Below, piece after piece: positions 2,725 through 52,148 of a stretch of DNA of 64,000 nucleotides (its first letter is position 1; the number at the start of each line of letters is the position of its first letter). Under the pieces are notes generated by a model, which worked only from the letters and a program-made list of their open reading frames with translations, searched no databases and was not told the DNA's origin. The translations under genes and the position numbers were made by a program. The stretch comes from an uncultured Gemmatimonadota bacterium (lineage in GTDB: Bacteria > JAAXHH01): positions 2,752,001 to 2,816,000 of the forward strand of contig OX638340.1 of the NCBI GenBank assembly GCA_951812955.1, written 5' to 3'.

Positions 2725-5097
2725 ATGTCCAGCTTGAGCATACTACCCCCCCTGCTTGTCCTGCTACTGCACGTAACGTGGTTGCCGCCCGTCGCCGCCC
2801 AGGAAGCGGAATCCCTCCTGGATCGGGCAAGGACACTGTATGGCGAAGGCGAATACCGGCGGGCGGAGTCCACACTGAGAGGCCTGCTCGAACGGCAACC
2901 CGGATCGCCGCAGGCCTTGCTGTGGCTGAGTCGCACGCTCGACCGGCTGGAACGGTATGACGAGGCCGAGCACGCCGTCAAGGAAGCGCTGAGGGCCGAC
3001 AGCGCTTCCCCGGAACCCCTCATACAACTTGCACGGGTCTACATGCTCAAAGACAAGAATAAAGAAGCGCGGAAGGTCCTGGACGAGGCCGAGAAGCTGG
3101 CGCCTGACAACGCGGACGTATTCTACTATCGCGGGCGCACCTATGGAAAGGTCAGGCTCTCGTTTTTCCGGCCCGGGACGGCCGAGCGGGAATCCCGGAT
3201 CCGGGACGCGTCCTTTCGGCGCGCCATCGAGTTGAACCCGATGCATCCCGATGCTTTATTTCAATTGGGATACGACATCGAAGAGAACAGAAACGATCCG
3301 GCAACCGCGATTGACTGGTATTTAAAGCAGGCGTCCGTAAATCCAGGACATGACGAAGCGGTCAAACGCCTGGCCATCTGTGCCATAAAGGCGAAGGACT
3401 ACCTGCAGGGATACCTGCTGCTGCAGCAGGTCGCCACGGCACAGGGTTCGGCCGTCAACCCCCTGATCGAAGGACTTGCGGGACAGCTCGAAGCCTACCA
3501 CTACCATACCCTCGACCAGCACGAACGAGCTTTCGTGGCCATGCGGCGATACGTCGCGGTCCTGTCGGAAGCCTATCCCGAAGAAGCGGCCGAGTTCAAG
3601 GATCTCTCTCTGGTGGCATCCTCGAAGGAAGCCGAAGCCTTTCGCGAAGCGTCGGAACAGGAAAGGACAGCGTTGTGGCGGACTTACTGGGCAGCCCGCG
3701 ATCCTGATCCGACCACGCGCATCAACGAACGGCTGGTGGAACACTACCGGCGGATGATCTATTCCAGGCTGCAGTTTTCAGGGGGCAAGGATCCCTGGGA
3801 CCGCCGAGGCGAGATCTATGTCCGGTTCGGTCATCCGGACGACCGTCAACAGTTCATCCTGAAATCCGGGGAGGACGTGATCCAGGCGATTTTCCCGACG
3901 GGGATCCGGGACGTGGACATGATCCGCGAACTCAGTCGGCAGCGACTCAATATGCAAGTCAGCACCGGGGCTCCGATCCAGGATTTCGGCGAATTCAGCG
4001 CGCGGGCCGGACGCGAGACCAAATCGGTCGCTTTCCCGACGGAAAGCTGGGTTTACGTCCCCTTCGGCCTGGAGATATTCTTCACCGACCAGCGTAATTC
4101 ACAGGTCTTCGACTACCCGCTCCAGGTGATTGACCTGCCTGACCTGGCGGGTAATTTCGGCACGACGGACCGACTGGCGTACAACTTCCTGAATACGCCG
4201 CGAAAACAGGCGGAGGAATTGGTCAGAAAGGTGTCCGAATACCATCGCCACGACTACGGCGGAGATCCACTCAACTTCGTATACTACCTCGCGTCATTCA
4301 AGGGCACCGATGGCGGGGTGGAGGTGGAAGTGGCCTACAGCGTTCCCTCGGTCCAGCTTGGCAACGTAGAAGATGGTCTCGGAGAACGGACCTGGCTGTC
4401 CGGGCGCCTCGCTCTCCAGGACATGGACTTCAACTTCGTTCAGGGGTTGCCTTTCAAGATGGGACCGCTTCGCCGCCCCGTGTCTGAGCAGGAAAATCTG
4501 CAACTCAGTACAGGAGCGTTCCGGTTCAGCGCGCGGCCCGGGGAGTACCGGTCCGCGGTTTCTCTGCGGGATTCGATTTCGCAGAAGTACGGCATCTTCA
4601 CGTCGCCGCTTCAAATTTCGGATTACAGCGCCAATCAGATGCTGCTGAGCGACATAAAGCTCGCCGCATCCATCGTTCCCACAGATGGAACGGGACTGCT
4701 CGTTCGCAACGGCCTTTCCATTACCCCTCACCCGGCACGCATCTATTCCCACGCGACGCCGGTGTACTTCTACTACGAGATCTACAATCTGGAACGGAAT
4801 GCCGACGGCCGGACAAGATTTCGTACGGAGCTGGAGATTGCCGCCAGGGAACCCAGACGGAACCTCGTATTCAGGCTCTTGACCAACCTGGGCCGGCTGG
4901 TCGGCCAGAGTTCCGATGACCAAACGACCTACACGACCTTCGAAGACGAGGGCACGTGGGTAGACGACTTCAAATACACGTCGATCGAAACGGAGGAACT
5001 GGATCCGGGAACCTACACCCTTACGCTGACCGTCACGGATCTCCATACCGGAGAGAAGGACATGAAGATGGTTGAATTCATAGTGGTCCGGGGATGA
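2725..5097 (+). CDS. Secreted TPR-repeat protein with GWxTD domain (paralog 2)
   Basis: Signal peptide MSSLSILPPLLVLLLHVTWLPPVAAQ. TPR repeats. Motif WDRRGEIYVRFGHPDD. C-terminal region colinear with the upstream paralog. Confidence 0.8.
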   Translation: MSSLSILPPLLVLLLHVTWLPPVAAQEAESLLDRARTLYGEGEYRRAESTLRGLLERQPGSPQALLWLSRTLDRLERYDEAEHAVKEALRADSASPEPLIQLARVYMLKDKNKEARKVLDEAEKLAPDNADVFYYRGRTYGKVRLSFFRPGTAERESRIRDASFRRAIELNPMHPDALFQLGYDIEENRNDPATAIDWYLKQASVNPGHDEAVKRLAICAIKAKDYLQGYLLLQQVATAQGSAVNPLIEGLAGQLEAYHYHTLDQHERAFVAMRRYVAVLSEAYPEEAAEFKDLSLVASSKEAEAFREASEQERTALWRTYWAARDPDPTTRINERLVEHYRRMIYSRLQFSGGKDPWDRRGEIYVRFGHPDDRQQFILKSGEDVIQAIFPTGIRDVDMIRELSRQRLNMQVSTGAPIQDFGEFSARAGRETKSVAFPTESWVYVPFGLEIFFTDQRNSQVFDYPLQVIDLPDLAGNFGTTDRLAYNFLNTPRKQAEELVRKVSEYHRHDYGGDPLNFVYYLASFKGTDGGVEVEVAYSVPSVQLGNVEDGLGERTWLSGRLALQDMDFNFVQGLPFKMGPLRRPVSEQENLQLSTGAFRFSARPGEYRSAVSLRDSISQKYGIFTSPLQISDYSANQMLLSDIKLAASIVPTDGTGLLVRNGLSITPHPARIYSHATPVYFYYEIYNLERNADGRTRFRTELEIAAREPRRNLVFRLLTNLGRLVGQSSDDQTTYTTFEDEGTWVDDFKYTSIETEELDPGTYTLTLTVTDLHTGEKDMKMVEFIVVRG

Positions 5098-5211
5098 GGG
5101 GTTCGAGGTGGCCGATCACGTTCGCGGGATCATTACGTTTGGTTTTCTGATGCGCAGGACGGCCGGCAATCAGCCGGTACGCTTGGCTGATGTTACAAGC
5201 GGGTCGCGGCA

Positions 5212-8200
5212 TCAGGCTCGCTTCTGGCGAACTCCAGGTGCGATCAGGCGGTAGAGCGCGGGGGTTACGAACAGGACGAGAACCGTGGATATTGCAAGGC
5301 CGCTGAGGCCGGTGTAGGACAGGCTGGTCCAGAGATCCCGCGTGGAGGGATGTCCGGTGATGAGCAGCGGTGTGAGCCCCACGAGCGTCGTCAGGGACGT
5401 GATCAGGATGGGACGCAGGCGCTGTCCGGCCGCGGTTATGATCGCCTCATCGAGGAGCATGCCGCTTCGCTGAAGGCGGGCCATGCAGTCCACGAGCAGG
5501 ATCGCGTTGTTGACCACGATGCCGATCATGAAGACGGTGCCGAGATAGGCGCCGCGGTCGAAACTCAGATCGAAATACCAGAAAACAAGGAAAATGCCGG
5601 TCAGCCCCATGGGAACCGTCATCAGAACGACCAGGGCTCGACGGAACGATTCGAACAGGGCCGAGGTAATCAGTAAAACAAGCGCGACGGCCAAGCCTAG
5701 GGCGAAGTTCATTTCACCTCGGTCAGCCTGATCGAAATCCGACCAGTTTGGCACGTCGATGCGGTAGCCCGGCGGTAGATCGACCGACGCGAGAAATGAT
5801 CGGCGGTAGCGGTCGGCCAGGCGGATAGTTCCGACGAACTCATAAGATATCCATCGCTCGTACTGTTGCTCGCTGCGCAGAATGTCCGTCGAAACGCGCT
5901 TGAATGCCAGTACGCCGGCGTCCCCGGCGTTAATTCGGCGATCCGCGCCGCCTAGCGGGATGCGTTCGAAGCCGGTGGTTTGCTCCTTGCGGGCGACAAG
6001 CATTCGATAGGGCACGCGACGACCCTCGATCAGGAGTTCGCCGTCCGGCTGGTGTCGGTCGGTGTACGGGAACAACGCCGTGCTCAAGTCGTTCAGTCTC
6101 ATGCCGGCCCGCGCCAAGACCCGTTGCGACGGTTTCAACTGTAGCTCGTAGTATGGACCGCCGCTCCCGAACCCCCCACGGGGCGAATGGGTGATTTCGA
6201 CGTTACGCACGCGGCGGTGTCTGCCCAGTTTCAAGGCGAGGCGCTCGGCGTGATTCCGCAGGTCGTCGAAATTGTACCCCCGAAGCCGGTAGTTGATAGA
6301 AACGGCCCTTTCGCCACCCGTTGAAAACCCCTGGCCGTAACCGTAAACGCCGATATCCAACCCTCCGAACCGGGTGGCCATGTTCTCCATCTCCGCTTCC
6401 ATGGCGTAGGGCAATGGCGACCGGGCGGTCCTGTCGATGAAGAGGGTGTGCACTCTGGCCCGCGTTTCCTGTACCGTTGCGGTCACCTGGACGCCTTTGC
6501 CCCCCACCGCCAGTGCATATCGTTCGAAAGCTACCGCCACCGAATCCACGGTGGCGGTTTCCATCCCCGGGGGGCCATATATGACGACATCGATATAGGT
6601 GTAGGCGCCGCCCCAGGAGAACGACGGTCCTTTCCACACGTCTGTAATGAAGAGATACACGCTGAGACCGAAGCCGGTCACGATAGCGACCGCGATCGGC
6701 CATCGCCACCGGATCATTCGAGCGACGACGCCTTTGTACCACCGGCCGATGCGCGTTGATTTCCGCGATCCGGCCTGCAAAGTGGCACCTCGGTCCAGGA
6801 GGCGCCCGATCACGGGCACCCAGATGCCGGCGACTGCCACGGAAGCCAGGAGCGTCAGTCCGAGACCGAGCGCGAAGGGACCGATGTGTTGCTTCAACTC
6901 GTTTGAGAGATAGATGATGGGGACGAGGGCGACGACGGTCGTCAGCGTCGTCGCTGCGACGGGTATCAACATTTCCGTCGTGCCCTGCACCGTCGCACTG
7001 TCTCGATCCTCGCCTTCCTCGCGTCGACGTCGGATGTTCTCATACACGACCACCGCGTTGTCCACGAGTATACCGAAAGCCAGGGCGAGACCCGATATGG
7101 TCAACAGATCGAGACCCAATCCGAGTGCCTTGAAGCAGATCATCGCGCCAAGCGCGGAGAGGGCAATGGTGGAGAGGAGTATGACAACCGTCCGCAACTG
7201 ACGCAAAAACAGCAGCAGTAACAGGACGATAGCGATCAGGGCGACGGACACGCGCAGGGCGATGTCCCGCAATGCCAGGCGCACGTCGTCGCTGCGGTCG
7301 ACGATCAACGACAGGACGACGCCCGAAGGCAATAGATCGCCCAGGGTCTCCATTTGATTTTTTACGCGGTCGGCCACGTTGAGCATGTTGGTACCGGGTT
7401 GCCTGGCGATCTCTACGGTGATCGCCGGCAGCCCGTTCACCCGGGACACGCCCTGGGGAGTCGAGAGGGTCCACCGCGTCTCGGCTAGATCGCCAAGACG
7501 CAGGACGCGATCGCCGTCCGAGGTAACGGGCAGTCGGGCCAGGTCGTGTATCCCGACCGCCAAGGGCGCCGTCCACAAAGGGACCGACGCGCCACGTCGA
7601 CGGAGGGTGCCGGCGGCGTGGGATTCGACGCCCAGGCGCAGGGCCCTGTGGAAATCCGCAGGAGACAAGCCGGTATTTTCCATGCGGCTCGCGTCGAGCA
7701 GCAAGTGCAGTTCCTCTTCTCTGCCTCCGATGACCTCGACGTCCGAAACGCCATCGACGGCCAGCAGCGCAGGGCGGATATCCTCCAGCGCCAGTCGACG
7801 TAGCGCATGATCGGTCACAGGACCGGACAAACGATAGCTCATGAAACCATCCAGATCTCGGAAAATCTCGGGCGGTGCCTCGGATACGCGCGGCCGAACG
7901 TGGGGTGGCAGGTCTGGACGCAGGACGGCAAGCCGGTCCACGACGAGGGCGCGCGTGACGGCGACAGGAGCAGCCGGGTCGCAGCCCGCCTGAACGCGCG
8001 CGTTTCCTTCCCTGGAAACAGAGCGGACTTCGACGATGCCGGGAACGGAGGCCAACTCCGCTTCAATAGGCGCCGTCACGTGCTTGACGACGGCTTCGGA
8101 AGAAGCGCCGGGCCAGTCCGCCGAGATGACGAGGGTTGGGTAGTCTATGTCGGGCTGCAACGACAGGGGCAGTTGCGCTAAGGAAGCGACGCCCAGCGCC

Positions 8201-15565: not shown

Positions 15566-16717
15566 TTAACCCGATGATTTGAGTTCGTAGACGACTACAG
15601 TTGGATTGGGCAGATTCTTAACGTCCTGCGACAACACGACGGGTGCTTCTGAACGCAGCAGATAGAGTCGGTCACCCCTGGAGACGATCCCCTGCGAACC
15701 ACCGCCAATGTGCTCGGGCAATTGCAGGTCGCCGGTAACGTAATTGAGATCTGTGTCGTAGAGATCCAAAAACACGCGACGCTCATTTGGTTCGGCCAGG
15801 ACCACTCCTATCATCTCGTCTCCTATCTTCAACAGTTGTCTTATGTGGCTCCACGTGGCGTGGTACGCTTGTCGTTTGCGGAGATCGCTCGAAATTTCGT
15901 GCTCATCAAAGTCTGTCGAAGGCGGCACATAGTGCGACGATCTGCCCCGTACCGTTCGAATCAGTTTTCCACCAAGATCGTACTTCCGAAGTTCGTACTC
16001 ATAGGGGGTGATTACATAAAGGTGTGAACCAAGCAGCAAGATACCTCCCCCTCTGGATTCTCCCACGGTACTGAACTCCTCGTATTGATCGGCGAAACTG
16101 TTCTTGATCTCTCCTGACCTAGTGCACTCGTAGACTACCCTATCGGCCCCCTTCCTGCTAGCGACACCACTCGTATAGCAAAAGAAGCGATCGTCGGCTG
16201 TCACGATAATCTGACCCAGGAAAAGAGGAAGATCGACACTGCTGTTGAACGTAAAATCTTCGCTGTACTCCTGGATTCGCAGAAGATCTCCATCGTATAC
16301 GTAGTACCTGTGTGTTTGATCGCTATAGTAAAGGTTATCGGGGTAGAGGTATTGGTCCGCATTCGTCCCAAGACTTCCAATCTTCGCCTTGCTTCCGCCC
16401 TTGGAGTCGAATACAAGTATCTGTCGAACCCCGAAGTTATCCAACACAATGAAATCGCCCTGTTCGTTTATCGCGCTGAACCAGGGCAAAGCGCTCAGCG
16501 TGAAGCCCGAATCATTGGCAAGCGGGATCTGACGTATTTCTGTATACACTTCCAAGAAAGACTGTTTATCTCCATAGGAATCGGCGAGATGAGCAATGGA
16601 TGTATTGCGGGCTTCTTCCATCGAACCATGAGTACTCTGACACGCCATTGCTCCCATGAAAAACACCATTAGCGAAAAGGACAGCAACCGTAGCGTTTCA
16701 TTCGTTCGCTCTGACAT
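15566..16717 (-). CDS. 6-bladed beta-propeller lipoprotein, TolB-like/NHL-like (paralog B)
   Basis: Signal peptide plus AMAC lipobox-like. Blades GDFIVLDNFGVRQILVFDSKG and LYVITPYEYELRKYDLGGKLI are colinear with paralog A. AGGAGG lies 9 nt upstream of the ATG. Confidence 0.7.
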   Translation of the reverse strand: MSERTNETLRLLSFSLMVFFMGAMACQSTHGSMEEARNTSIAHLADSYGDKQSFLEVYTEIRQIPLANDSGFTLSALPWFSAINEQGDFIVLDNFGVRQILVFDSKGGSKAKIGSLGTNADQYLYPDNLYYSDQTHRYYVYDGDLLRIQEYSEDFTFNSSVDLPLFLGQIIVTADDRFFCYTSGVASRKGADRVVYECTRSGEIKNSFADQYEEFSTVGESRGGGILLLGSHLYVITPYEYELRKYDLGGKLIRTVRGRSSHYVPPSTDFDEHEISSDLRKRQAYHATWSHIRQLLKIGDEMIGVVLAEPNERRVFLDLYDTDLNYVTGDLQLPEHIGGGSQGIVSRGDRLYLLRSEAPVVLSQDVKNLPNPTVVVYELKSSG

Positions 16718-16750
16718 GGTTGGATTCCCTCCTCATTAGCTTGCCTTTAA

Positions 16751-17087
16751 CAGTACAACCGGAAAGTGCTCGCTTCTTAAGTTGACGCTTATCGTGAATC
16801 GAACCACCACAATCCTATCGGTCAGGCTTGACTACGCTCAAGGCCAGGTATGAGCGCTAAATGGAGAACAATGATGAGATGTCGAGGGCTGGCAGTGGTA
16901 CACGTTATTTGCTACATGTACCCAATTGTATACTTGATTGGCTCCTGCCGGCTCCGTGGACAACGCCAGCATGCTCATTGCGCCGGCCATCGTCAATGCA
17001 CCGACGAACATTACACGAGTGAAGATGCTTCTGATTGAAGTTTTGATGACCGTGCTCCTTTCATTGTGCCTTTCCGGTTGTACTGTG
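16751..17087. repeat. Perfect 16-bp inverted repeat (cagtacaaccggaaag / ctttccggttgtactg) flanking a 305-bp AT-richer segment
   Basis: Read directly from the sequence. Left arm 16751-16766, right arm 17072-17087. The IR extends to 17 bp with one more matching base. Confidence 0.8.
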
Positions 17088-17170
17088 CAATGAATAAAAT
17101 GACACCTGACCGATAGTCATCAACAGATACATATTGGAAGTGGAAACGGCTGGATATTTAGGGTAAAACC

Positions 17171-17692
17171 CTACACCTCCATAATCTCCACCAGTTCGTC
17201 TTCAGGATACGGGAAATGCCCCTGGGTACCCCGGTTGACCCGGGCCATGCGCTCCCCGAACACCATGTCTTCTCTGATCAATTCCGAAGTCCTGTGAATG
17301 CACTCCAACGTTGGGATTCCTCCTGTCGCGATCGCTGCTTCGGCTTCCTCCAGAAGAGCCGTCATGTCGTAAAACATCTTGATATTCGGCGACAGCATCT
17401 TGCGAGCCTGTTCCGGCAGTGAGGCGCGTAACTCCAGACAGAGATCGAGGGCTTTCAGAAGATGTTCCCTCGCGATTCGAAAGCACTTCCGTGCTTTACT
17501 CAGTGAAGCGCGATACGGCAGGATATTTCCCGCCAGGCAGGCGCCCAGATCTTCTATTTCCTCCAGGGCGCCAAGTCCCATGAAATAGTGGCCCCATCCC
17601 GTAAGTGTGAGCGGATAGATCCGGTGTTCGAAGGCTTCTTTGAGCTCCACATTGTCTGGCATCGGCGGAAGTGGGCAGGTCCAATCAGACAT
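17171..17692 (-). CDS. Hypothetical protein (173 aa)
   Basis: Clean ORF with no family recognised. First gene downstream of the palindromic operator-like site at 17793-17809. Confidence 0.5.
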   Translation of the reverse strand: MSDWTCPLPPMPDNVELKEAFEHRIYPLTLTGWGHYFMGLGALEEIEDLGACLAGNILPYRASLSKARKCFRIAREHLLKALDLCLELRASLPEQARKMLSPNIKMFYDMTALLEEAEAAIATGGIPTLECIHRTSELIREDMVFGERMARVNRGTQGHFPYPEDELVEIMEV

Positions 17693-17792
17693 TGTAGGCC
17701 TCCTTCAGTACATCAATTGGTGAAGAGACTCGCGGAGATGGAACACTGGAACGATCTACCCATTAAAGAAAGGAAAGCCGGACCGGTTATCT

Positions 17793-17809
17793 ATAGGGTG
17801 TATCCCTAT
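17793..17809. promoter_or_regulatory. Palindromic operator-like site ATAGGGTGTATCCCTAT, copy 1
   Basis: Perfect 6-bp arms with a 5-bp spacer. About 100 bp upstream of the start codon of 17171..17692 (minus strand). A near-identical copy lies at 18612-18628. Confidence 0.45.
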
Positions 17810-17890
17810 TTGCTCGTTTTTTTTCACCGGAATCGAAAAAACCTGATTCCGGTCTTGAAGGAGTAGAGCGTCTCCTTTAAACGAACGTGT

Positions 17891-18526
17891 TCATTCTTCC
17901 ATTTTGATCAGACCAAGTTTGATCGCCGCTCGGATCAGATCGGGAAGGCTGTGCGTGTCTAGTTTCGCCATCAGATTTATGCGATGATTCTGCACGGTTT
18001 TTATACTGATTCGCATGGTTTCGGCTATCTGGCGATTGGATCGCCCCGATACGATCAGTCGAAGGATTTCGCGCTCACGGGGAGTAAGCCGGGGCGGTGT
18101 GCCATGGGGGTACTCCTCATACAGGTAATCGGCATGATCCATGGCCCGGGATTGGTACGTAACGCCCCTGCAAACGGTGCGTATCGCTTTGACCAACTCT
18201 TCGCCCGCTGATTTCTTGAGCACGTAGCCCCTGGCGCCGTTGTCCAGCGCTTTCCGGATCAGTGCGGGATCGGAATGCATCGACAGCATGACCACCCGGA
18301 CCTCGGAAAACGACGCGCGAATCCGCCTCGTCGCTTCGATACCGTTGATACCGGGCATCTCGACGTCCATCACTATGACGTCCGTTCGGACTCGATGCAC
18401 GGCATCGATCGCCTCCCGGCCATCCACGGCCTCGGCGACTATTCGAATATCGGACTCTTTTTCGAGCAGGTCCCGCAGCCCCTGCCGAATCAGATGATGA
18501 TCGTCTGCAATCACTACGCGTATCAT
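17891..18526 (-). CDS. LuxR/NarL-family response regulator (REC + HTH)
   Basis: MIRVVIADDHHLIRQGLRDLL...DVIVMDVEMPGINGIEA... C-terminal LuxR HTH (LTPREREILRLIVSGRSNRQIAETMRISIKTVQNHR). Confidence 0.9.
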   Translation of the reverse strand: MIRVVIADDHHLIRQGLRDLLEKESDIRIVAEAVDGREAIDAVHRVRTDVIVMDVEMPGINGIEATRRIRASFSEVRVVMLSMHSDPALIRKALDNGARGYVLKKSAGEELVKAIRTVCRGVTYQSRAMDHADYLYEEYPHGTPPRLTPREREILRLIVSGRSNRQIAETMRISIKTVQNHRINLMAKLDTHSLPDLIRAAIKLGLIKMEE

Positions 18527-18611
18527 ATGATGTTCGCGATCTCCTCTTCTGGTCGTTACATGACGAAATCCGTCGTTTGCTCAATACTAACAACAAAAAG
18601 GGGGACTATCC

Positions 18612-18628
18612 ATAGGGTGTTTCCCTAT
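18612..18628. promoter_or_regulatory. Palindromic operator-like site ATAGGGTGTTTCCCTAT, copy 2
   Basis: Located in the 196-bp gap between the two response-regulator genes, about 85-100 bp upstream of the 17891..18526 start codon. Confidence 0.45.
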
Positions 18629-18722
18629 GTTCCGCTTTTTCTTACGGTATTGGGGGGCTGAAGTGGCGAGAGAGATAGACTGCGGCCAACCGGATTGCTA
18701 CCAAGCGGGGAAAGACGACGGT

Positions 18723-19376
18723 TCATTCATCCAGGAAAGCGAGACGGTGCTTGAGGGCCAGGAGTATGAGATCCGGCAGATTGTGGACTTTCAACTTCTT
18801 CATCAGGATCGCGCGGTGTTTTTCCACGGTCTTGTCGCTGATGTTCAGGACCTCCGCCGCGGCCTGATTGGTATGTCCCTCGACGATGAGCTGAAGTATC
18901 TCCCGTTCGCGGGATGAAAGCTGCTCCAGAACGGCCTTTGACTCATTCGCCGATTCCGTCTGCAGGAATCCCGATAGCACGGTTTGAGCAATCGAAGGTG
19001 AAAGATAGATTTCGCCCTTGTTGGCGGACCGGATGGCGATCAGGAGTTCCTCCACGACGGATCTCTTGAGGAGATACCCGCTGGCCCCGCATCTGAGCGC
19101 CTGGCGCACCACGTCCTCATCCGAATGCATGGATAGTATGACGACGCGGGTATCGACGGACAGCGTCTGAATCCGCCGCGTGGTCTCGATACCGTTCAGC
19201 AAAGGCATGGCGATATCCAACATGGCGACGTCCGGTCTCTTCCGTTGTACCAGGTTCAGGGTCTCGTGACCATCGGCCGCTTCGCCGACAACTTCCATAT
19301 CCTCGGCCTTTTCGATTAGAGACACGATGCTTTGACGGACCAGTTGGTGATCGTCGGCAATAACGATCCTGATCAT
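18723..19376 (-). CDS. LuxR/NarL-family response regulator (REC + HTH), paralog
   Basis: MIRIVIADDHQLVRQSIVSLIE... LSSREREILQLIVEGHTNQAAAEVLNISDKTVEKHR. Its start overlaps the kinase stop (ATGA). Confidence 0.9.
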   Translation of the reverse strand: MIRIVIADDHQLVRQSIVSLIEKAEDMEVVGEAADGHETLNLVQRKRPDVAMLDIAMPLLNGIETTRRIQTLSVDTRVVILSMHSDEDVVRQALRCGASGYLLKRSVVEELLIAIRSANKGEIYLSPSIAQTVLSGFLQTESANESKAVLEQLSSREREILQLIVEGHTNQAAAEVLNISDKTVEKHRAILMKKLKVHNLPDLILLALKHRLAFLDE

Positions 19377-22159
19377 TTCTCCTCCAAAGGAATTGTAGCG
19401 ACCAGACGGGCTCCCGCGCCTGGTTTCGAGTAAACATTCATGCGGCCATTCAGCGATTCAAGGCGTTCCTGCATATCTATCAAACCGATTCCTGTTTCAT
19501 TCTGATCCGAAAGTGTATCTGCAAGATCAAAACCCTGGCCGTTATCCTGTATCGATAGTTGTACGACTTCGCCATTGCGTTTCAAGCTAACTTCCACATG
19601 AGAGGCTTGTCCGTGTTTGACGCAGTTCGTCAGCCCTTCCTGCAGTATACGATACAGGCAGATATCGATTGGATTGGAGATTTCCGTAGTATCCATGCCA
19701 ACGTATGAGACCGGCATTTGAGTTCGTTGTGTTAAACTCTTGCATAGTCCTTCCAATGCTGTATTCAGCCCGACTGTATCCAGTGTCGGGGGACGGAGAT
19801 TATGGGAGATCGCACGTAGTTTCTCCAGCGTCTCGTCGGTTAGCGCCACGGCGTCGCTCAGCCGTTCTGCCGTATGATCGGAGACCCCGGACAACTCGTT
19901 CCGGGTTATTTCAAGGCTCATCTTCAGCGCCGTGAGCGCTTGTCCCGTATCGTCATGGAGATCCCGCGCCAGCCGGCTTCTTTCCGATTCCTGAATGTCG
20001 ATGAGTCGTCTGGAGAGTCTCTTCAATCCCAGGGCCTGATGCCGTAGCGATGTTGCCATATCGAGGTTCTTCAACGCCAATTCCAATTCGGCCGACAGGA
20101 CCAGCAACTGTTCTTTTTCATCGCTGTTGAACGGTTCTTCGCTGAGTTTTGCACCCAGTGCAATACATCCTTGACGGTCAGATCCTTGTCCGAGTACGAC
20201 CATGAGTTCGCACCCGGTGTCTCTCATACTTTCATTTGCGTACAGTTCGCGATACTCGACCAACGATTGCTCGGGGGGTATCGATCGCAGAAGGCCTTCG
20301 ACCTTGCCGGCTGCTTCAGTGAAGAACGTTTCATTTCTCTTGAGATCCTGCTCCGGCTTCTCACGCACTGCGTACCATCGGACCGAAAGCGATTCCTGAG
20401 GACTTTCTGCAAGGTATATCGCCAGATAGCAAACGTCCAATCCCTCCAGCAACTCTTGCCCGGTGGCGCTCAAAAGCGCATTACGATCCTGGTATTGCGT
20501 TAAGGATTGCTCGAGTCTGAAAAGGCGTTGTCGGTTTTCATATTCATCACGCAAAAGATATTGATTCAGTAAGCGGATGACGGGCGTCTTCACCCAGGTC
20601 CACCCTCCGACGAGTATCAAGGTGAATCCAGCGGCAGCGCTGGCGATCAGAAGATCGGAGGTTTCCATACCGGTCGGCCACACGGATATCAGTTCAAATA
20701 GTGCGATTAACGTCCAGAAGCTGAATATGAGATATATGCTCTTGGCATTGGCCAGGTAACGCAGACCACTTCCGAAGACGAACTTCAGGCCGAACACTCG
20801 GTGTGCCAGAATGGTATAGACAAAGGCGAGCGGCAGTCCACACTGCAGTACTACGTGGATGATCCGATCGAAGAGCCAGACTAATACCGGCAGGGCGGCC
20901 CCCCTTATTGGAATCAGGTCCCAACTGGCCAGAAGTGTACCAGGTTGCGTAATAGTCCACACGGGAGCCAAAATGAGGGCCGAGATGAATCCTGCCTTGA
21001 TGATATGCAGTCGCGTGCGTTGCTGATGCCGCGCGACGGAACGTTGGGCTATCATAAGACATCCCGCGGCGATGACAACGAGGGTGGGCAGCGCGGGAAC
21101 GGGCACTGGTTCAACGATTTCCGTGATGATACCAACTCCTGCGTGGTCCCACCCATAGGTCAGACTCAGCAAATAGATCAGACGGCACGATAGCCAGACA
21201 ATCAGGGGCGTCAGGATGAACCACCGGTTTTTGAGCAGCCATGATCCGAAAGCCGTCGCACTGGGGAAGACGGCAAGAATCCGAAACATGAGAACGATTT
21301 CCAGTAAGGATGCCGCGACGATGGCGAATATGCTGAGGAACAGTACCCAGTCCGGCCATCCGGCTATCATGGGATGGAAAGCGGGCGAGGAGGAAAGCGC
21401 CATAGCGAGGAAGAGCAACGCGCATCGAAAGGCAAGGGGACTGTGCGGACTCCTGAACCCCATCCAGGTTCCGAAGACCAGCAGGACCATCGGTAAAATC
21501 AGATACGGCCCCCGTTGGAACCACGTCATCGCGCCTACGCCCAGTACGAGTTCCTCCTGATTGACCTCGACTGCGTATCGTACCTGTTCCGTGGCCTCAA
21601 GCGTGAGTATACCAGCGTGCATGCTGCCGTCGCGAAGCCAGGCAAGATTGAAACGTTCACCGGGCTTGCTCCGCAAACGCGCCTGGAAATAGGCTTCGGG
21701 ACGTGTCCCGAGATCCGTGCCATCAATAGAGATCACCAGGTCACCCGGTCGCAATCCGGCTTTGTCCGCAGGGCTGTCCGCGTCTACTTGCGTGACGGTA
21801 ATACCGCCGTCCTCGCGTATGCGAACGAGGTGGAACCACGTGCCCTCCTGCAGATTGCTCACCGCACTTTTCGTGAGTCCCTTCGTCTGTATCATTTCAT
21901 TTCCGAAGAACTGGATACCCGGTGACCAGTGCTCGATTTGCGTGAACCGTACCAGCGTCCACGTGACCAGTCCTAAATGCATACACGTGAACATGACCAG
22001 TGCGCTGAGTGCGACGTATCGGCGGATGAGTGTCTTCAACCGAGAGCTACTCAATTGCGAGGGAATTGTATTTGAAGAGTCATTCATGTCAACATACAGA
22101 TTGCTTTTCGAGAAGCATCCTGAAGCAATTTCGGAAAACAGGTGGACTTGACTCAACAA
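19373..22159 (-). CDS. Membrane sensor histidine kinase with N-terminal PDZ domain, multi-TM region, GAF-like and HisKA_3/HATPase_c domains
   Basis: PDZ-like segment VTQVDADSPADKAGLRPGDLVISIDGTDL after TM1. About 8-10 hydrophobic helices. H-box ERSRLARDLHDDTGQALTAL (NarL-type HisKA_3). Then N/G boxes (DNGQGFD, GIGLIDMQERL). Confidence 0.85.
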   Translation of the reverse strand: MLSQVHLFSEIASGCFSKSNLYVDMNDSSNTIPSQLSSSRLKTLIRRYVALSALVMFTCMHLGLVTWTLVRFTQIEHWSPGIQFFGNEMIQTKGLTKSAVSNLQEGTWFHLVRIREDGGITVTQVDADSPADKAGLRPGDLVISIDGTDLGTRPEAYFQARLRSKPGERFNLAWLRDGSMHAGILTLEATEQVRYAVEVNQEELVLGVGAMTWFQRGPYLILPMVLLVFGTWMGFRSPHSPLAFRCALLFLAMALSSSPAFHPMIAGWPDWVLFLSIFAIVAASLLEIVLMFRILAVFPSATAFGSWLLKNRWFILTPLIVWLSCRLIYLLSLTYGWDHAGVGIITEIVEPVPVPALPTLVVIAAGCLMIAQRSVARHQQRTRLHIIKAGFISALILAPVWTITQPGTLLASWDLIPIRGAALPVLVWLFDRIIHVVLQCGLPLAFVYTILAHRVFGLKFVFGSGLRYLANAKSIYLIFSFWTLIALFELISVWPTGMETSDLLIASAAAGFTLILVGGWTWVKTPVIRLLNQYLLRDEYENRQRLFRLEQSLTQYQDRNALLSATGQELLEGLDVCYLAIYLAESPQESLSVRWYAVREKPEQDLKRNETFFTEAAGKVEGLLRSIPPEQSLVEYRELYANESMRDTGCELMVVLGQGSDRQGCIALGAKLSEEPFNSDEKEQLLVLSAELELALKNLDMATSLRHQALGLKRLSRRLIDIQESERSRLARDLHDDTGQALTALKMSLEITRNELSGVSDHTAERLSDAVALTDETLEKLRAISHNLRPPTLDTVGLNTALEGLCKSLTQRTQMPVSYVGMDTTEISNPIDICLYRILQEGLTNCVKHGQASHVEVSLKRNGEVVQLSIQDNGQGFDLADTLSDQNETGIGLIDMQERLESLNGRMNVYSKPGAGARLVATIPLEEK

Positions 22160-51906: not shown

Positions 51907-51980
51907 TGGGCGCTAGTGGACTCGAACCACTGACCTCCACGATGTGAGCGTGGCACTCTAACCGGCTGAGCTAAGCGCCC
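51907..51980 (-). tRNA. tRNA-Val (anticodon CAC)
   Basis: Manual fold of the reverse complement: acceptor GGGCGCT/AGCGCCC; D-arm GCTC...GAGT; anticodon stem CCACG/CGTGG with loop CTCACAT; T-arm AGTGG TTCGAGT CCACT; discriminator A. Confidence 0.7.
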
Positions 51981-51986
51981 GGCAAA

Positions 51987-52060
51987 TGGGCCCGCCAGGA
52001 CTCGAACCTGGGACCGTCCGATTATGAGTCGGATGCTCTAACCAACTGAGCTACAGGCCC
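51987..52060 (-). tRNA. tRNA-Met (anticodon CAT; elongator type, tRNA-Ile2/lysidine not excluded)
   Basis: Reverse complement GGGCCTGTAGCTCAGTTGGTTAGAGCATCCGACTCATAATCGGACGGTCCCAGGTTCGAGTCCTGGCGGGCCCA. G1:C72 is paired, so not an initiator. Loop CTCATAA. Confidence 0.7.
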
Positions 52061-52148
52061 ATGTTTGCGACCCAGTCAGCCTACCCGACAGATTGGATCA
52101 ATATAGGCGAACGGGGGGGCATCGTCAAGCAAAAGATGGGGGTGAAGC

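Follow-up and report, generated by a model that had tools for sequence, protein, structure and literature searches.

The 64-kb window analysed here (64,000 nucleotides of contig OX638340.1, from an uncultured Gemmatimonadota bacterium, with all positions given in the coordinates of that stretch) contains a two-component regulatory locus in which the gene for a PDZ-containing sensor histidine kinase (HK) is followed by genes for two response regulators, RR2 and RR1, and then by ORF173, an open reading frame (ORF) of 173 amino acids; all of these genes lie on the minus strand. The gap between RR2 and RR1 carries a palindrome, ATAGGGTGTTTCCCTAT, at 18612–18628, which has no strand of its own and whose core, TAGGG-N5-CCCTA, occupies 18613–18627 with its centre at 18620; we refer to this core as the box. 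Our analysis of the sequence suggests, with a probability of roughly 0.78, that the box is an operator for a dimer of the NarL/LuxR-type regulator or regulators encoded at the locus itself, and that it forms part of an activator-dependent RR1 promoter. The box would thus most probably give RR1 a signal-inducible promoter, and from its position and its relatives we infer activation by the box rather than repression.

The box occurs three times in the window. In addition to the copy between RR2 and RR1 (copy 2), there is a copy upstream of ORF173, ATAGGGTGTATCCCTAT (copy 1; 17793–17809), and a third, TAGGGTAAAACCCTA (17159–17173), which is an exact instance of the 15-bp core and overlaps the ORF173 stop codon; like copy 2, neither is assigned to a strand. 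The third copy is missing from the list in the original prediction, and it has an equivalent with one mismatch in one of the related loci described below (L002, 6564–6578). A search of the 64-kb window for ATAGGG-N5-CCCTAT with no more than one mismatch returns two matches, which are copies 1 and 2, while shuffled versions of the window yield a mean of 0.03 matches, and two or more in 0 of 100 shuffles; the second copy at 18612–18628, as originally described, is confirmed, and it is non-random. The pentamers TAGGG and CCCTA are found 31 times in the window, six of these being the arms of the three box copies, and those copies are the only ones in 64 kb and fall within 1.5 kb of one another. 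A relaxed search of the window, allowing two or three mismatches, gives no more matches than the shuffles do and none upstream of the kinase gene, and there is likewise no box upstream of the HK-RR2 operon in the window.

Copy 2 is an inverted repeat with short half-sites and a short spacer, often seen among the aligned instances in the extended form TAGGGT-N3-ACCCTA, and it is intergenic, upstream of a co-directional gene, with its centre 94 nt from the RR1 ATG. The 196-bp length that had been given for this gap is correct (from the RR2 stop at 18723 to the RR1 start at 18526). Copies 1 and 2 had also been said to differ only at the central base; they do differ at a single base, but this is position 10 of 17, within the 5-nt spacer and one base off the exact centre. 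The similarity between the two copies reaches past the palindrome, with 37 nt at 78% identity, as might be seen if the element were a dispersed repeat of the REP or MITE kind (repetitive extragenic palindrome or miniature inverted-repeat transposable element) rather than a regulatory site, the other trivial explanation being a chance palindrome. The chance expectation is however only 0.03, there are just three copies in 64 kb and none in the flanks of related loci, and the extended 37-nt similarity was not found in other lineages. The shuffles, together with conservation of the box at orthologous positions amid unrelated flanks, rule out both of these explanations, to which we attach a negligible probability.

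We used ORF173 as an anchor for collecting related loci. It has 39 homologues at 56–92% identity, all of them in metagenomes or metagenome-assembled genomes (MAGs), from which 19 loci were assembled, 15 of them non-redundant; they appear to be from Latescibacterota MAGs and metagenomes, only one MAG carrying a phylum name, Candidatus Latescibacterota. The order PDZ-kinase, RR2, (RR1), ORF173 is maintained throughout, while the neighbouring genes vary from locus to locus. All 15 non-redundant loci have a core box with at most one mismatch some 115–165 nt ahead of the ORF173 homologue, and a box is present between RR2 and RR1 in nine of the 12 non-redundant lineages that have two regulators. The latter copy is found in the window and in L002, L003, L005, L006/7, L011, L012, L015, L016/17 and L019, and it is missing at short RR2-RR1 gaps (L010, 20 nt; L018, 72 nt; L013/14, 108 nt). 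Every pairwise comparison gives 100% identity over the ten positions of the arms, whereas the rest of the RR2-RR1 gap is only 42–55% identical to that of the window. Lack of conservation in orthologous loci had been named as the observation that would speak against the element, and what we find is strong conservation of the palindrome in its place, amid flanks that have diverged.

The boxes are also confined to this locus. Of the exact boxes in the loci, 22 fall within the core that runs from the kinase to ORF173 (77 kb), and the sole exact box counted outside that core, at L019:468, is just upstream of the L019 kinase gene; no exact box is present in the other ~93 kb of flanks, nor in the window outside the locus (~150 kb examined). 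Both L011 and L019 have a further box upstream of the kinase gene. No TAGGG/CCCTA pairs at other spacings (N2–N9) were seen in the first eleven loci (L001–L011). This distribution bears on whether the box might be bound by a regulator encoded elsewhere, such as a global factor, or by the ORF173 protein, and we note that ORF173 always adjoins a box. Exact boxes are nonetheless restricted to the locus in the sequence examined, and they follow the HK-RR2 pair into differing neighbourhoods; the predicted fold of ORF173 is a simple four-helix bundle, for which neither a significant match to a solved structure nor a match to a sequence family was obtained, and the box fits the type of operator used by the NarL family. 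We thus regard binding by either of these alternatives as very improbable.

Two of the related loci, L002 and L003, lie about 650 kb apart on a single MAG chromosome (OY762445.1) and are paralogous kinase-RR2-RR1-ORF173 modules, with ORF173 proteins 92% and 76% identical to that of the window and with the same box in both. In L019, the RR2-RR1 gap is unusually long (3962–5156, ~1.2 kb) with no gene called within it, and a box (4068–4082) and a TATATT hexamer are found at its start; the length of the gap may reflect an uncalled gene or an insertion.

An indication that the box belongs to a promoter comes from the sequence at a fixed distance from it. Each of the nine non-redundant copies upstream of RR1 is followed, 23 nt beyond CCCTA, by the start of a TAnnnT hexamer (TAGTAT, TAATTT, TATAAT/TATATA, TAACTT, TAGTTT, TAGATT and TATATT being the forms observed), with T1, A2 and T6 the most conserved positions. 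In the window this is TAGTAT, a predicted −10 hexamer at 18589..18584 on the minus strand, identified by its positional conservation across the nine copies and directly preceded on the same strand by an extended −10-like TGn (TGT, 18592..18590). A weak −35-like hexamer, TGGATA, matching TTGACA at four of six positions, occupies 18612..18607 on the minus strand; it abuts the box, its first T doubling as the final T of the 17-mer palindrome, with TgGg.a as the consensus among orthologues and a spacer of 17 nt to the −10. Transcription would then be predicted to start near 18577, giving a 5′ leader of about 50 nt, and the box would be centred (18620) at about −43. A weak −35 adjoined by a palindrome at around this position is what one classically sees in an activator-dependent (class II) promoter, as with LuxR at −42.5. 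Lux boxes are likewise palindromes that abut or replace a poor −35, centred ~42–44 bp upstream of the start and bound by members of the same helix-turn-helix (HTH) superfamily, although they are 20 bp long and of unrelated sequence, and LuxR-type regulators are ligand-activated rather than phosphorylated.

Alignment of the RR2-RR1 gaps shows that the box and the hexamer have been lost jointly in L013/L014 and in L018, and joint loss in short gaps is what is expected if the pair constitutes a separate RR1 promoter module. The proposal that RR1 has its own inducible promoter is supported by the TAnnnT hexamer at a fixed 23 nt, by this joint loss, and by the match to the NreC operators described below. 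The host uses canonical −35/−10 promoters, as is evident from the near-consensus sigma-70 promoter (TTGACG-17-TATATT, 52128..52100) of a tRNA-Val(CAC)/tRNA-Met(CAT) pair at 51907–52128 on the minus strand, and inspection by eye around both copies revealed neither Bacteroidota-type −33/−7 elements (TTTG / TAnnTTTG) nor sigma-54 −24/−12 elements. The third copy again has an A/T-rich −10-like hexamer about 23 nt downstream, which is CAATAT in the window and TAAATA in L002. The −10 of copy 1 is ambiguous: the window offers TTTCTT (+22) and TTTAAT (+26), and the other loci offer TATCTT (+22) and another candidate around +38.

Among characterised operators, those of NreC offer the closest comparison. 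NreC is a 217-residue regulator of receiver (REC) plus GerE architecture that binds better when phosphorylated and activates transcription (PMC8139620, PMC9918477), and in its phosphorylated form (NreC~P) it binds GC-rich palindromes at the nar, nir and narT promoters (PMC8139620). The consensus operator is TAGGG...CCCTA, and the Staphylococcus carnosus operators printed include nar OP1 TAGGGAATACCCCTA and AAGGGGATTCCCTA (PMC9918477 Suppl. Fig. 11b). A Bacillus licheniformis site upstream of sqr-pdo, IR-9 OP (TAGGGGAGTTCCCTA), was predicted from the S. carnosus operators, and when it was mutated to CGATA-GAGTT-GACGT, binding of NreC~P was abolished in electrophoretic mobility shift assays (PMC9918477). 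These operators have the same half-sites in the same orientation as the box described here, and both nar OP1 and IR-9 are printed with an N5 spacer; most of the S. carnosus sites, however, are printed at 14 nt (N4), whereas the sites in these loci are strictly N5. By our own reading of IR9 as printed, TAACTT, a TAnnnT hexamer, is found 23 nt beyond CCCTA, as in the loci described here, with the exact distance being slightly uncertain since the figure was machine-read and an extra C is possible across a line break. A literature search for the literal string TAGGGN4CCCTA gave no match.

The likeness extends to the protein. Comparison with NreC proteins retrieved from the database, each named as such by its source, reveals a recognition-helix pattern common to NreC, RR1 and RR2, S-x-K-T-V-(E/Q)-x-H-(K/R)-x-x-(I/L)-M-x-K-L, whose H-(K/R) and M positions are absent from both NarL (TESTVKVHVKHMLKKM) and VraR (TLKTVKTHVSNILAKL). 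The systems as a whole differ in other respects: NreB is a cytoplasmic kinase with an Fe-S cluster in a PAS domain, whereas the kinase here is a membrane PDZ/HisKA_3 protein with no PAS match; the targets of NreC are in nitrate/nitrite respiration or sulfide oxidation (sqr-pdo), whereas those predicted here are RR1, a four-helix-bundle protein without a family, and small-peptide/DUF5128 genes; and the hosts of NreC are Bacillota, whereas the loci here are apparently from Latescibacterota. Judged on these sequence features, the box resembles the NreC operator in kind, and the system itself is not NreBC.

Other palindromes of this general type are more distant. The Escherichia coli NarL 7-2-7 site is TACYYMT-NN-AKRRGTA, likewise an inverted repeat of short, CCC/GGG-rich half-sites for a dimer of a NarL-family REC+GerE regulator, but the half-sites are reversed (ACCC...GGGT, as opposed to GGGT...ACCC here), the spacing differs, and NarL does not have the K-T-V-x-x-H-(K/R) helix pattern of RR1 and RR2. 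The Mycobacterium tuberculosis DosR/DevR box is a 20-bp palindrome, GGGAC...GTCCC, whose regulator also activates its own operon; this too is a GGG...CCC palindrome for a NarL-family regulator, with a separation between GGG and CCC of 8 nt as compared with 5 nt here, and with different flanking bases.

A palindrome in a gap between genes of one strand could also function in RNA, forming a hairpin on the minus-strand transcript that acts as a terminator, attenuator, processing site, or site for an RNA-binding protein. The 7-bp stem folds with an energy of −10.2 kcal/mol (z = −4.4), and on the gene strand a short U-run follows it (UUUUUGUUGUU), the T-run at +13 to +18 being moderately conserved. 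That U-run nevertheless begins 12–13 nt past the stem, whereas in an intrinsic terminator the distance is 0–2 nt, and a terminator scan of 16700–19500 returned no match. Among 28 aligned box instances, 24 of them distinct, there is not a single pair altered on both sides; the six departures in the outer five TAGGG/CCCTA pairs amount to four broken pairs and two G-U pairs, and 13 of the 24 distinct instances have no pairing at the sixth, inner position. The absence of compensatory changes and the presence of broken pairs indicate that sequence rather than structure has been selected, and thus point to a DNA site recognised by a protein. Moreover, the boxes preceding the kinase genes of L011 and L019 have only a divergent neighbour, so there is nothing there to terminate, and a search of 16500–19500 against Rfam (E ≤ 1) gave two sub-threshold chance matches, neither of them on the palindrome. 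It therefore seems unlikely, at odds we would place well below those of the repressor alternative considered next, that the palindrome acts through RNA. The T-run noted earlier on the plus strand does exist (TTTTT at 18636–18640) and, as was also stated then, it is not a terminator; it is unconserved, the orthologues carrying TTCATCAGAAT-type sequence there in the gene orientation.

Several observations weigh against the box being an operator within an activator-dependent RR1 promoter. The RR1-upstream copy is missing in three of the 12 two-regulator lineages, and it is thus dispensable for the system. A scan of 16700–19500 for sigma-70 promoters, with a consensus scanner and a threshold of 9/12, found nothing; the proposed −35/−10 pair scores 8/12, below that threshold, and its assignment derives only from positional conservation. 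The kinase-upstream boxes of L011 and L019 have no TAnnnT at 23 nt, so that a single geometry fails to fit every copy. RR2 and RR1 are only 37–40% identical to staphylococcal NreC, and the stability of the RNA hairpin means that the palindrome could conceivably function in transcripts that read through it. The weakness of the −35/−10 assignment and the absence of a downstream TAnnnT at the two kinase-upstream boxes would also be compatible with the same operator being a negative one, either repressing or roadblocking HK-RR2 read-through into RR1, or mediating negative autoregulation by RR1. There is no terminator-like element between RR2 and RR1, which makes read-through likely and would provide a roadblock with a target. 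The box is however located upstream of the −10-like hexamer and not over it, replacing or abutting a poor −35 in the usual geometry of an activator; the box and the hexamer are lost as one unit; and the closest characterised boxes, those of NreC, are activating. A negative operator is accordingly an improbable alternative, albeit the least improbable of those we have considered, and we favour an activator site.

The identity of the regulator can be narrowed by comparing the loci. The sole DNA-binding proteins that accompany the box across differing neighbourhoods are RR2 and RR1, both of which carry Response_reg and GerE domains and retain the phospho-acceptor residues D8, D9, D54 and K104, with RR1 being 47% identical to RR2. 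L009 has a single regulator and L004 has a decayed RR1, and both retain an RR2 orthologue together with the ORF173 box; the surviving regulator is 70–71% identical to RR2, as compared with 45–46% to RR1. Because RR2 accompanies the box at every locus, it is the more probable binder of the two, and we consider it the most probable binder of the box on present sequence comparisons. The recognition helix is S-x-K/R-T-V-E-(K/R)-H-R-x-x-L-M-K-K-L in all RR2 orthologues and S-x-K-T-(V/I)-x-x-H-R-x-x-L-M-x-K-L in all RR1 orthologues, and with this shared pattern RR1 could recognise these sites as well. Among solved structures, those closest to RR2 are VraR, NarL (1a04, E = 3e-35), DevR (3c3w, E = 2e-27) and DesR; no NCBIfam equivalog model reaches its cutoff for RR1 or RR2, and NreC is not among the best 25 families for either. 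In L004 (Candidatus Latescibacterota MAG JAJEHX010000017.1), the RR2-ORF173 gap is 590 nt long (5414–6003) and contains a C-terminal remnant of RR1 that translates to ...LIASGQTNRQISGRLSVSGKTIEHYRNNLMAKLDAHSL...; this lineage is losing RR1 but keeps the ORF173 box.

Taken together, these features suggest a pathway in which the PDZ-containing kinase would phosphorylate RR2, and phosphorylated RR2 would bind TAGGG-N5-CCCTA before RR1, before ORF173, and, in this lineage, before the small-peptide/DUF5128 genes. Bound RR2 would then recruit RNA polymerase at a class II-like sigma-70 promoter, so that RR1 would be expressed in response to the signal from a promoter of its own, over and above whatever read-through comes from HK-RR2. 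The original prediction had also described the locus as autoregulated, which for the window holds only loosely. A box does precede RR1, but there is none before the HK-RR2 operon in the window, and autoregulation in the strict sense would apply only if RR1 binds its own box; with RR2 as the binder, the arrangement would be a cascade from RR2 to RR1 rather than autoregulation.

The genes of the locus are arranged as follows. The kinase gene (19373–22159, minus strand) has a longest ORF of up to 928 amino acids and encodes a PDZ domain, a long hydrophobic region, and HisKA_3 and HATPase_c domains, with no PAS match in the domain search; the kinases of the related loci share this architecture. 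It overlaps by 4 nt the start of RR2 (18723–19376, minus strand; 217 amino acids, REC and GerE/LuxR HTH), which is followed across the gap containing copy 2 by RR1 (17891–18526, minus strand; 211 amino acids, also REC and GerE/LuxR HTH). A further gap of 198 bp containing copy 1 separates RR1 from ORF173 (17171–17692, minus strand), and beyond the third copy are a small secreted-peptide ORF, a DUF5128 beta-propeller gene and a thioredoxin-like gene.

ORF173 matches no Pfam or NCBIfam family. Its AlphaFold model is a four-helix bundle (pLDDT, the predicted local distance difference test, of 83), and a comparison of this model with the PDB gave no significant match (best E = 0.6); on this model it is not an obvious DNA binder. 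The invariant or near-invariant positions are C6, H23, E22, E44, C52, C85, C131, H133, E147 and H159, and the presence of conserved Cys, His, Glu and Asp residues suggests a putative metal or redox site.

The region upstream of ORF173 has additional features. An TTTTGAGGGTAG element is strongly conserved about 22 nt (two helical turns) upstream of the ORF173 box, in L003, L005, L006, L012, L013, L015, L016, L018 and others, and resembles an extra half-site (xAGGGTA); the window does not have it, and in its place there is a 9-bp hairpin, ACCGGAATC/GATTCCGGT (~17829–17857), followed by an A-run. In the 5′ leader of ORF173 (alignment columns ~535–565), a hairpin or palindrome is present at a conserved position with lineage-specific, compensatory-looking sequence, for example CAACTGTTCGAACAGTTG in L013, AACCGTTCACACGGTT in L012, ATCTGTTTGATCAAACAGAT in L006 and GATGGAAATCAC...TGATTTCCATC in L004/L009, and is hard to make out in the window; either an RNA structure in the leader or another operator could account for it. 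On the other side of ORF173, the small secreted-peptide ORF (~57–69 amino acids, with a signal-peptide-like N-terminus and several Cys and His residues) is bracketed by a perfect 17-nt inverted repeat whose arms are 303 nt apart (16750–16766 and 17070–17086). A second perfect inverted repeat, of 12–16 nt, is placed in a crossing arrangement with the first (16815–16826 and 17105–17116 in the window), and both are kept in L002 (6649–6665 and 6966–6982; 6618–6633 and 6906–6921). These crossing repeats could represent an invertible cassette or a long-range RNA pairing.

The site represents solid but ordinary biology, and it does not overturn current understanding. It does supply a concrete cis-element, together with a model of the promoter, for a two-component system belonging to an uncultured phylum without a known regulator-operator pair, and the box is usable for regulon prediction across complete MAG chromosomes. 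The occurrence of two modules with the same box in one genome raises the question of cross-talk versus insulation. More speculatively, and as a possibility to which we would give rather less than even odds, the locus may be an undescribed module, known so far only from relatives of Latescibacterota MAGs, in which a membrane PDZ kinase feeds a two-tier cascade, acting through RR2 and the box on the paralogous RR1 with a shared operator code, and in which ORF173 is the universal output and might feed back. Under the same tentative scheme, the recognition code of NreC would consist of the helix K-T-V-x-x-H-K/R paired with TAGGG half-sites, and it would be an ancient, cross-phylum pairing put to new use with an unrelated signal. 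Apart from that scheme, the box illustrates that the operator code TAGGG...CCCTA, as used by regulators of the NreC type, reaches far outside the Bacillota. The proposed layout of the locus, with a kinase-coupled regulator inducing a paralogous regulator and a small protein, is a design that is common, though seldom documented, and serves delayed or amplified responses.

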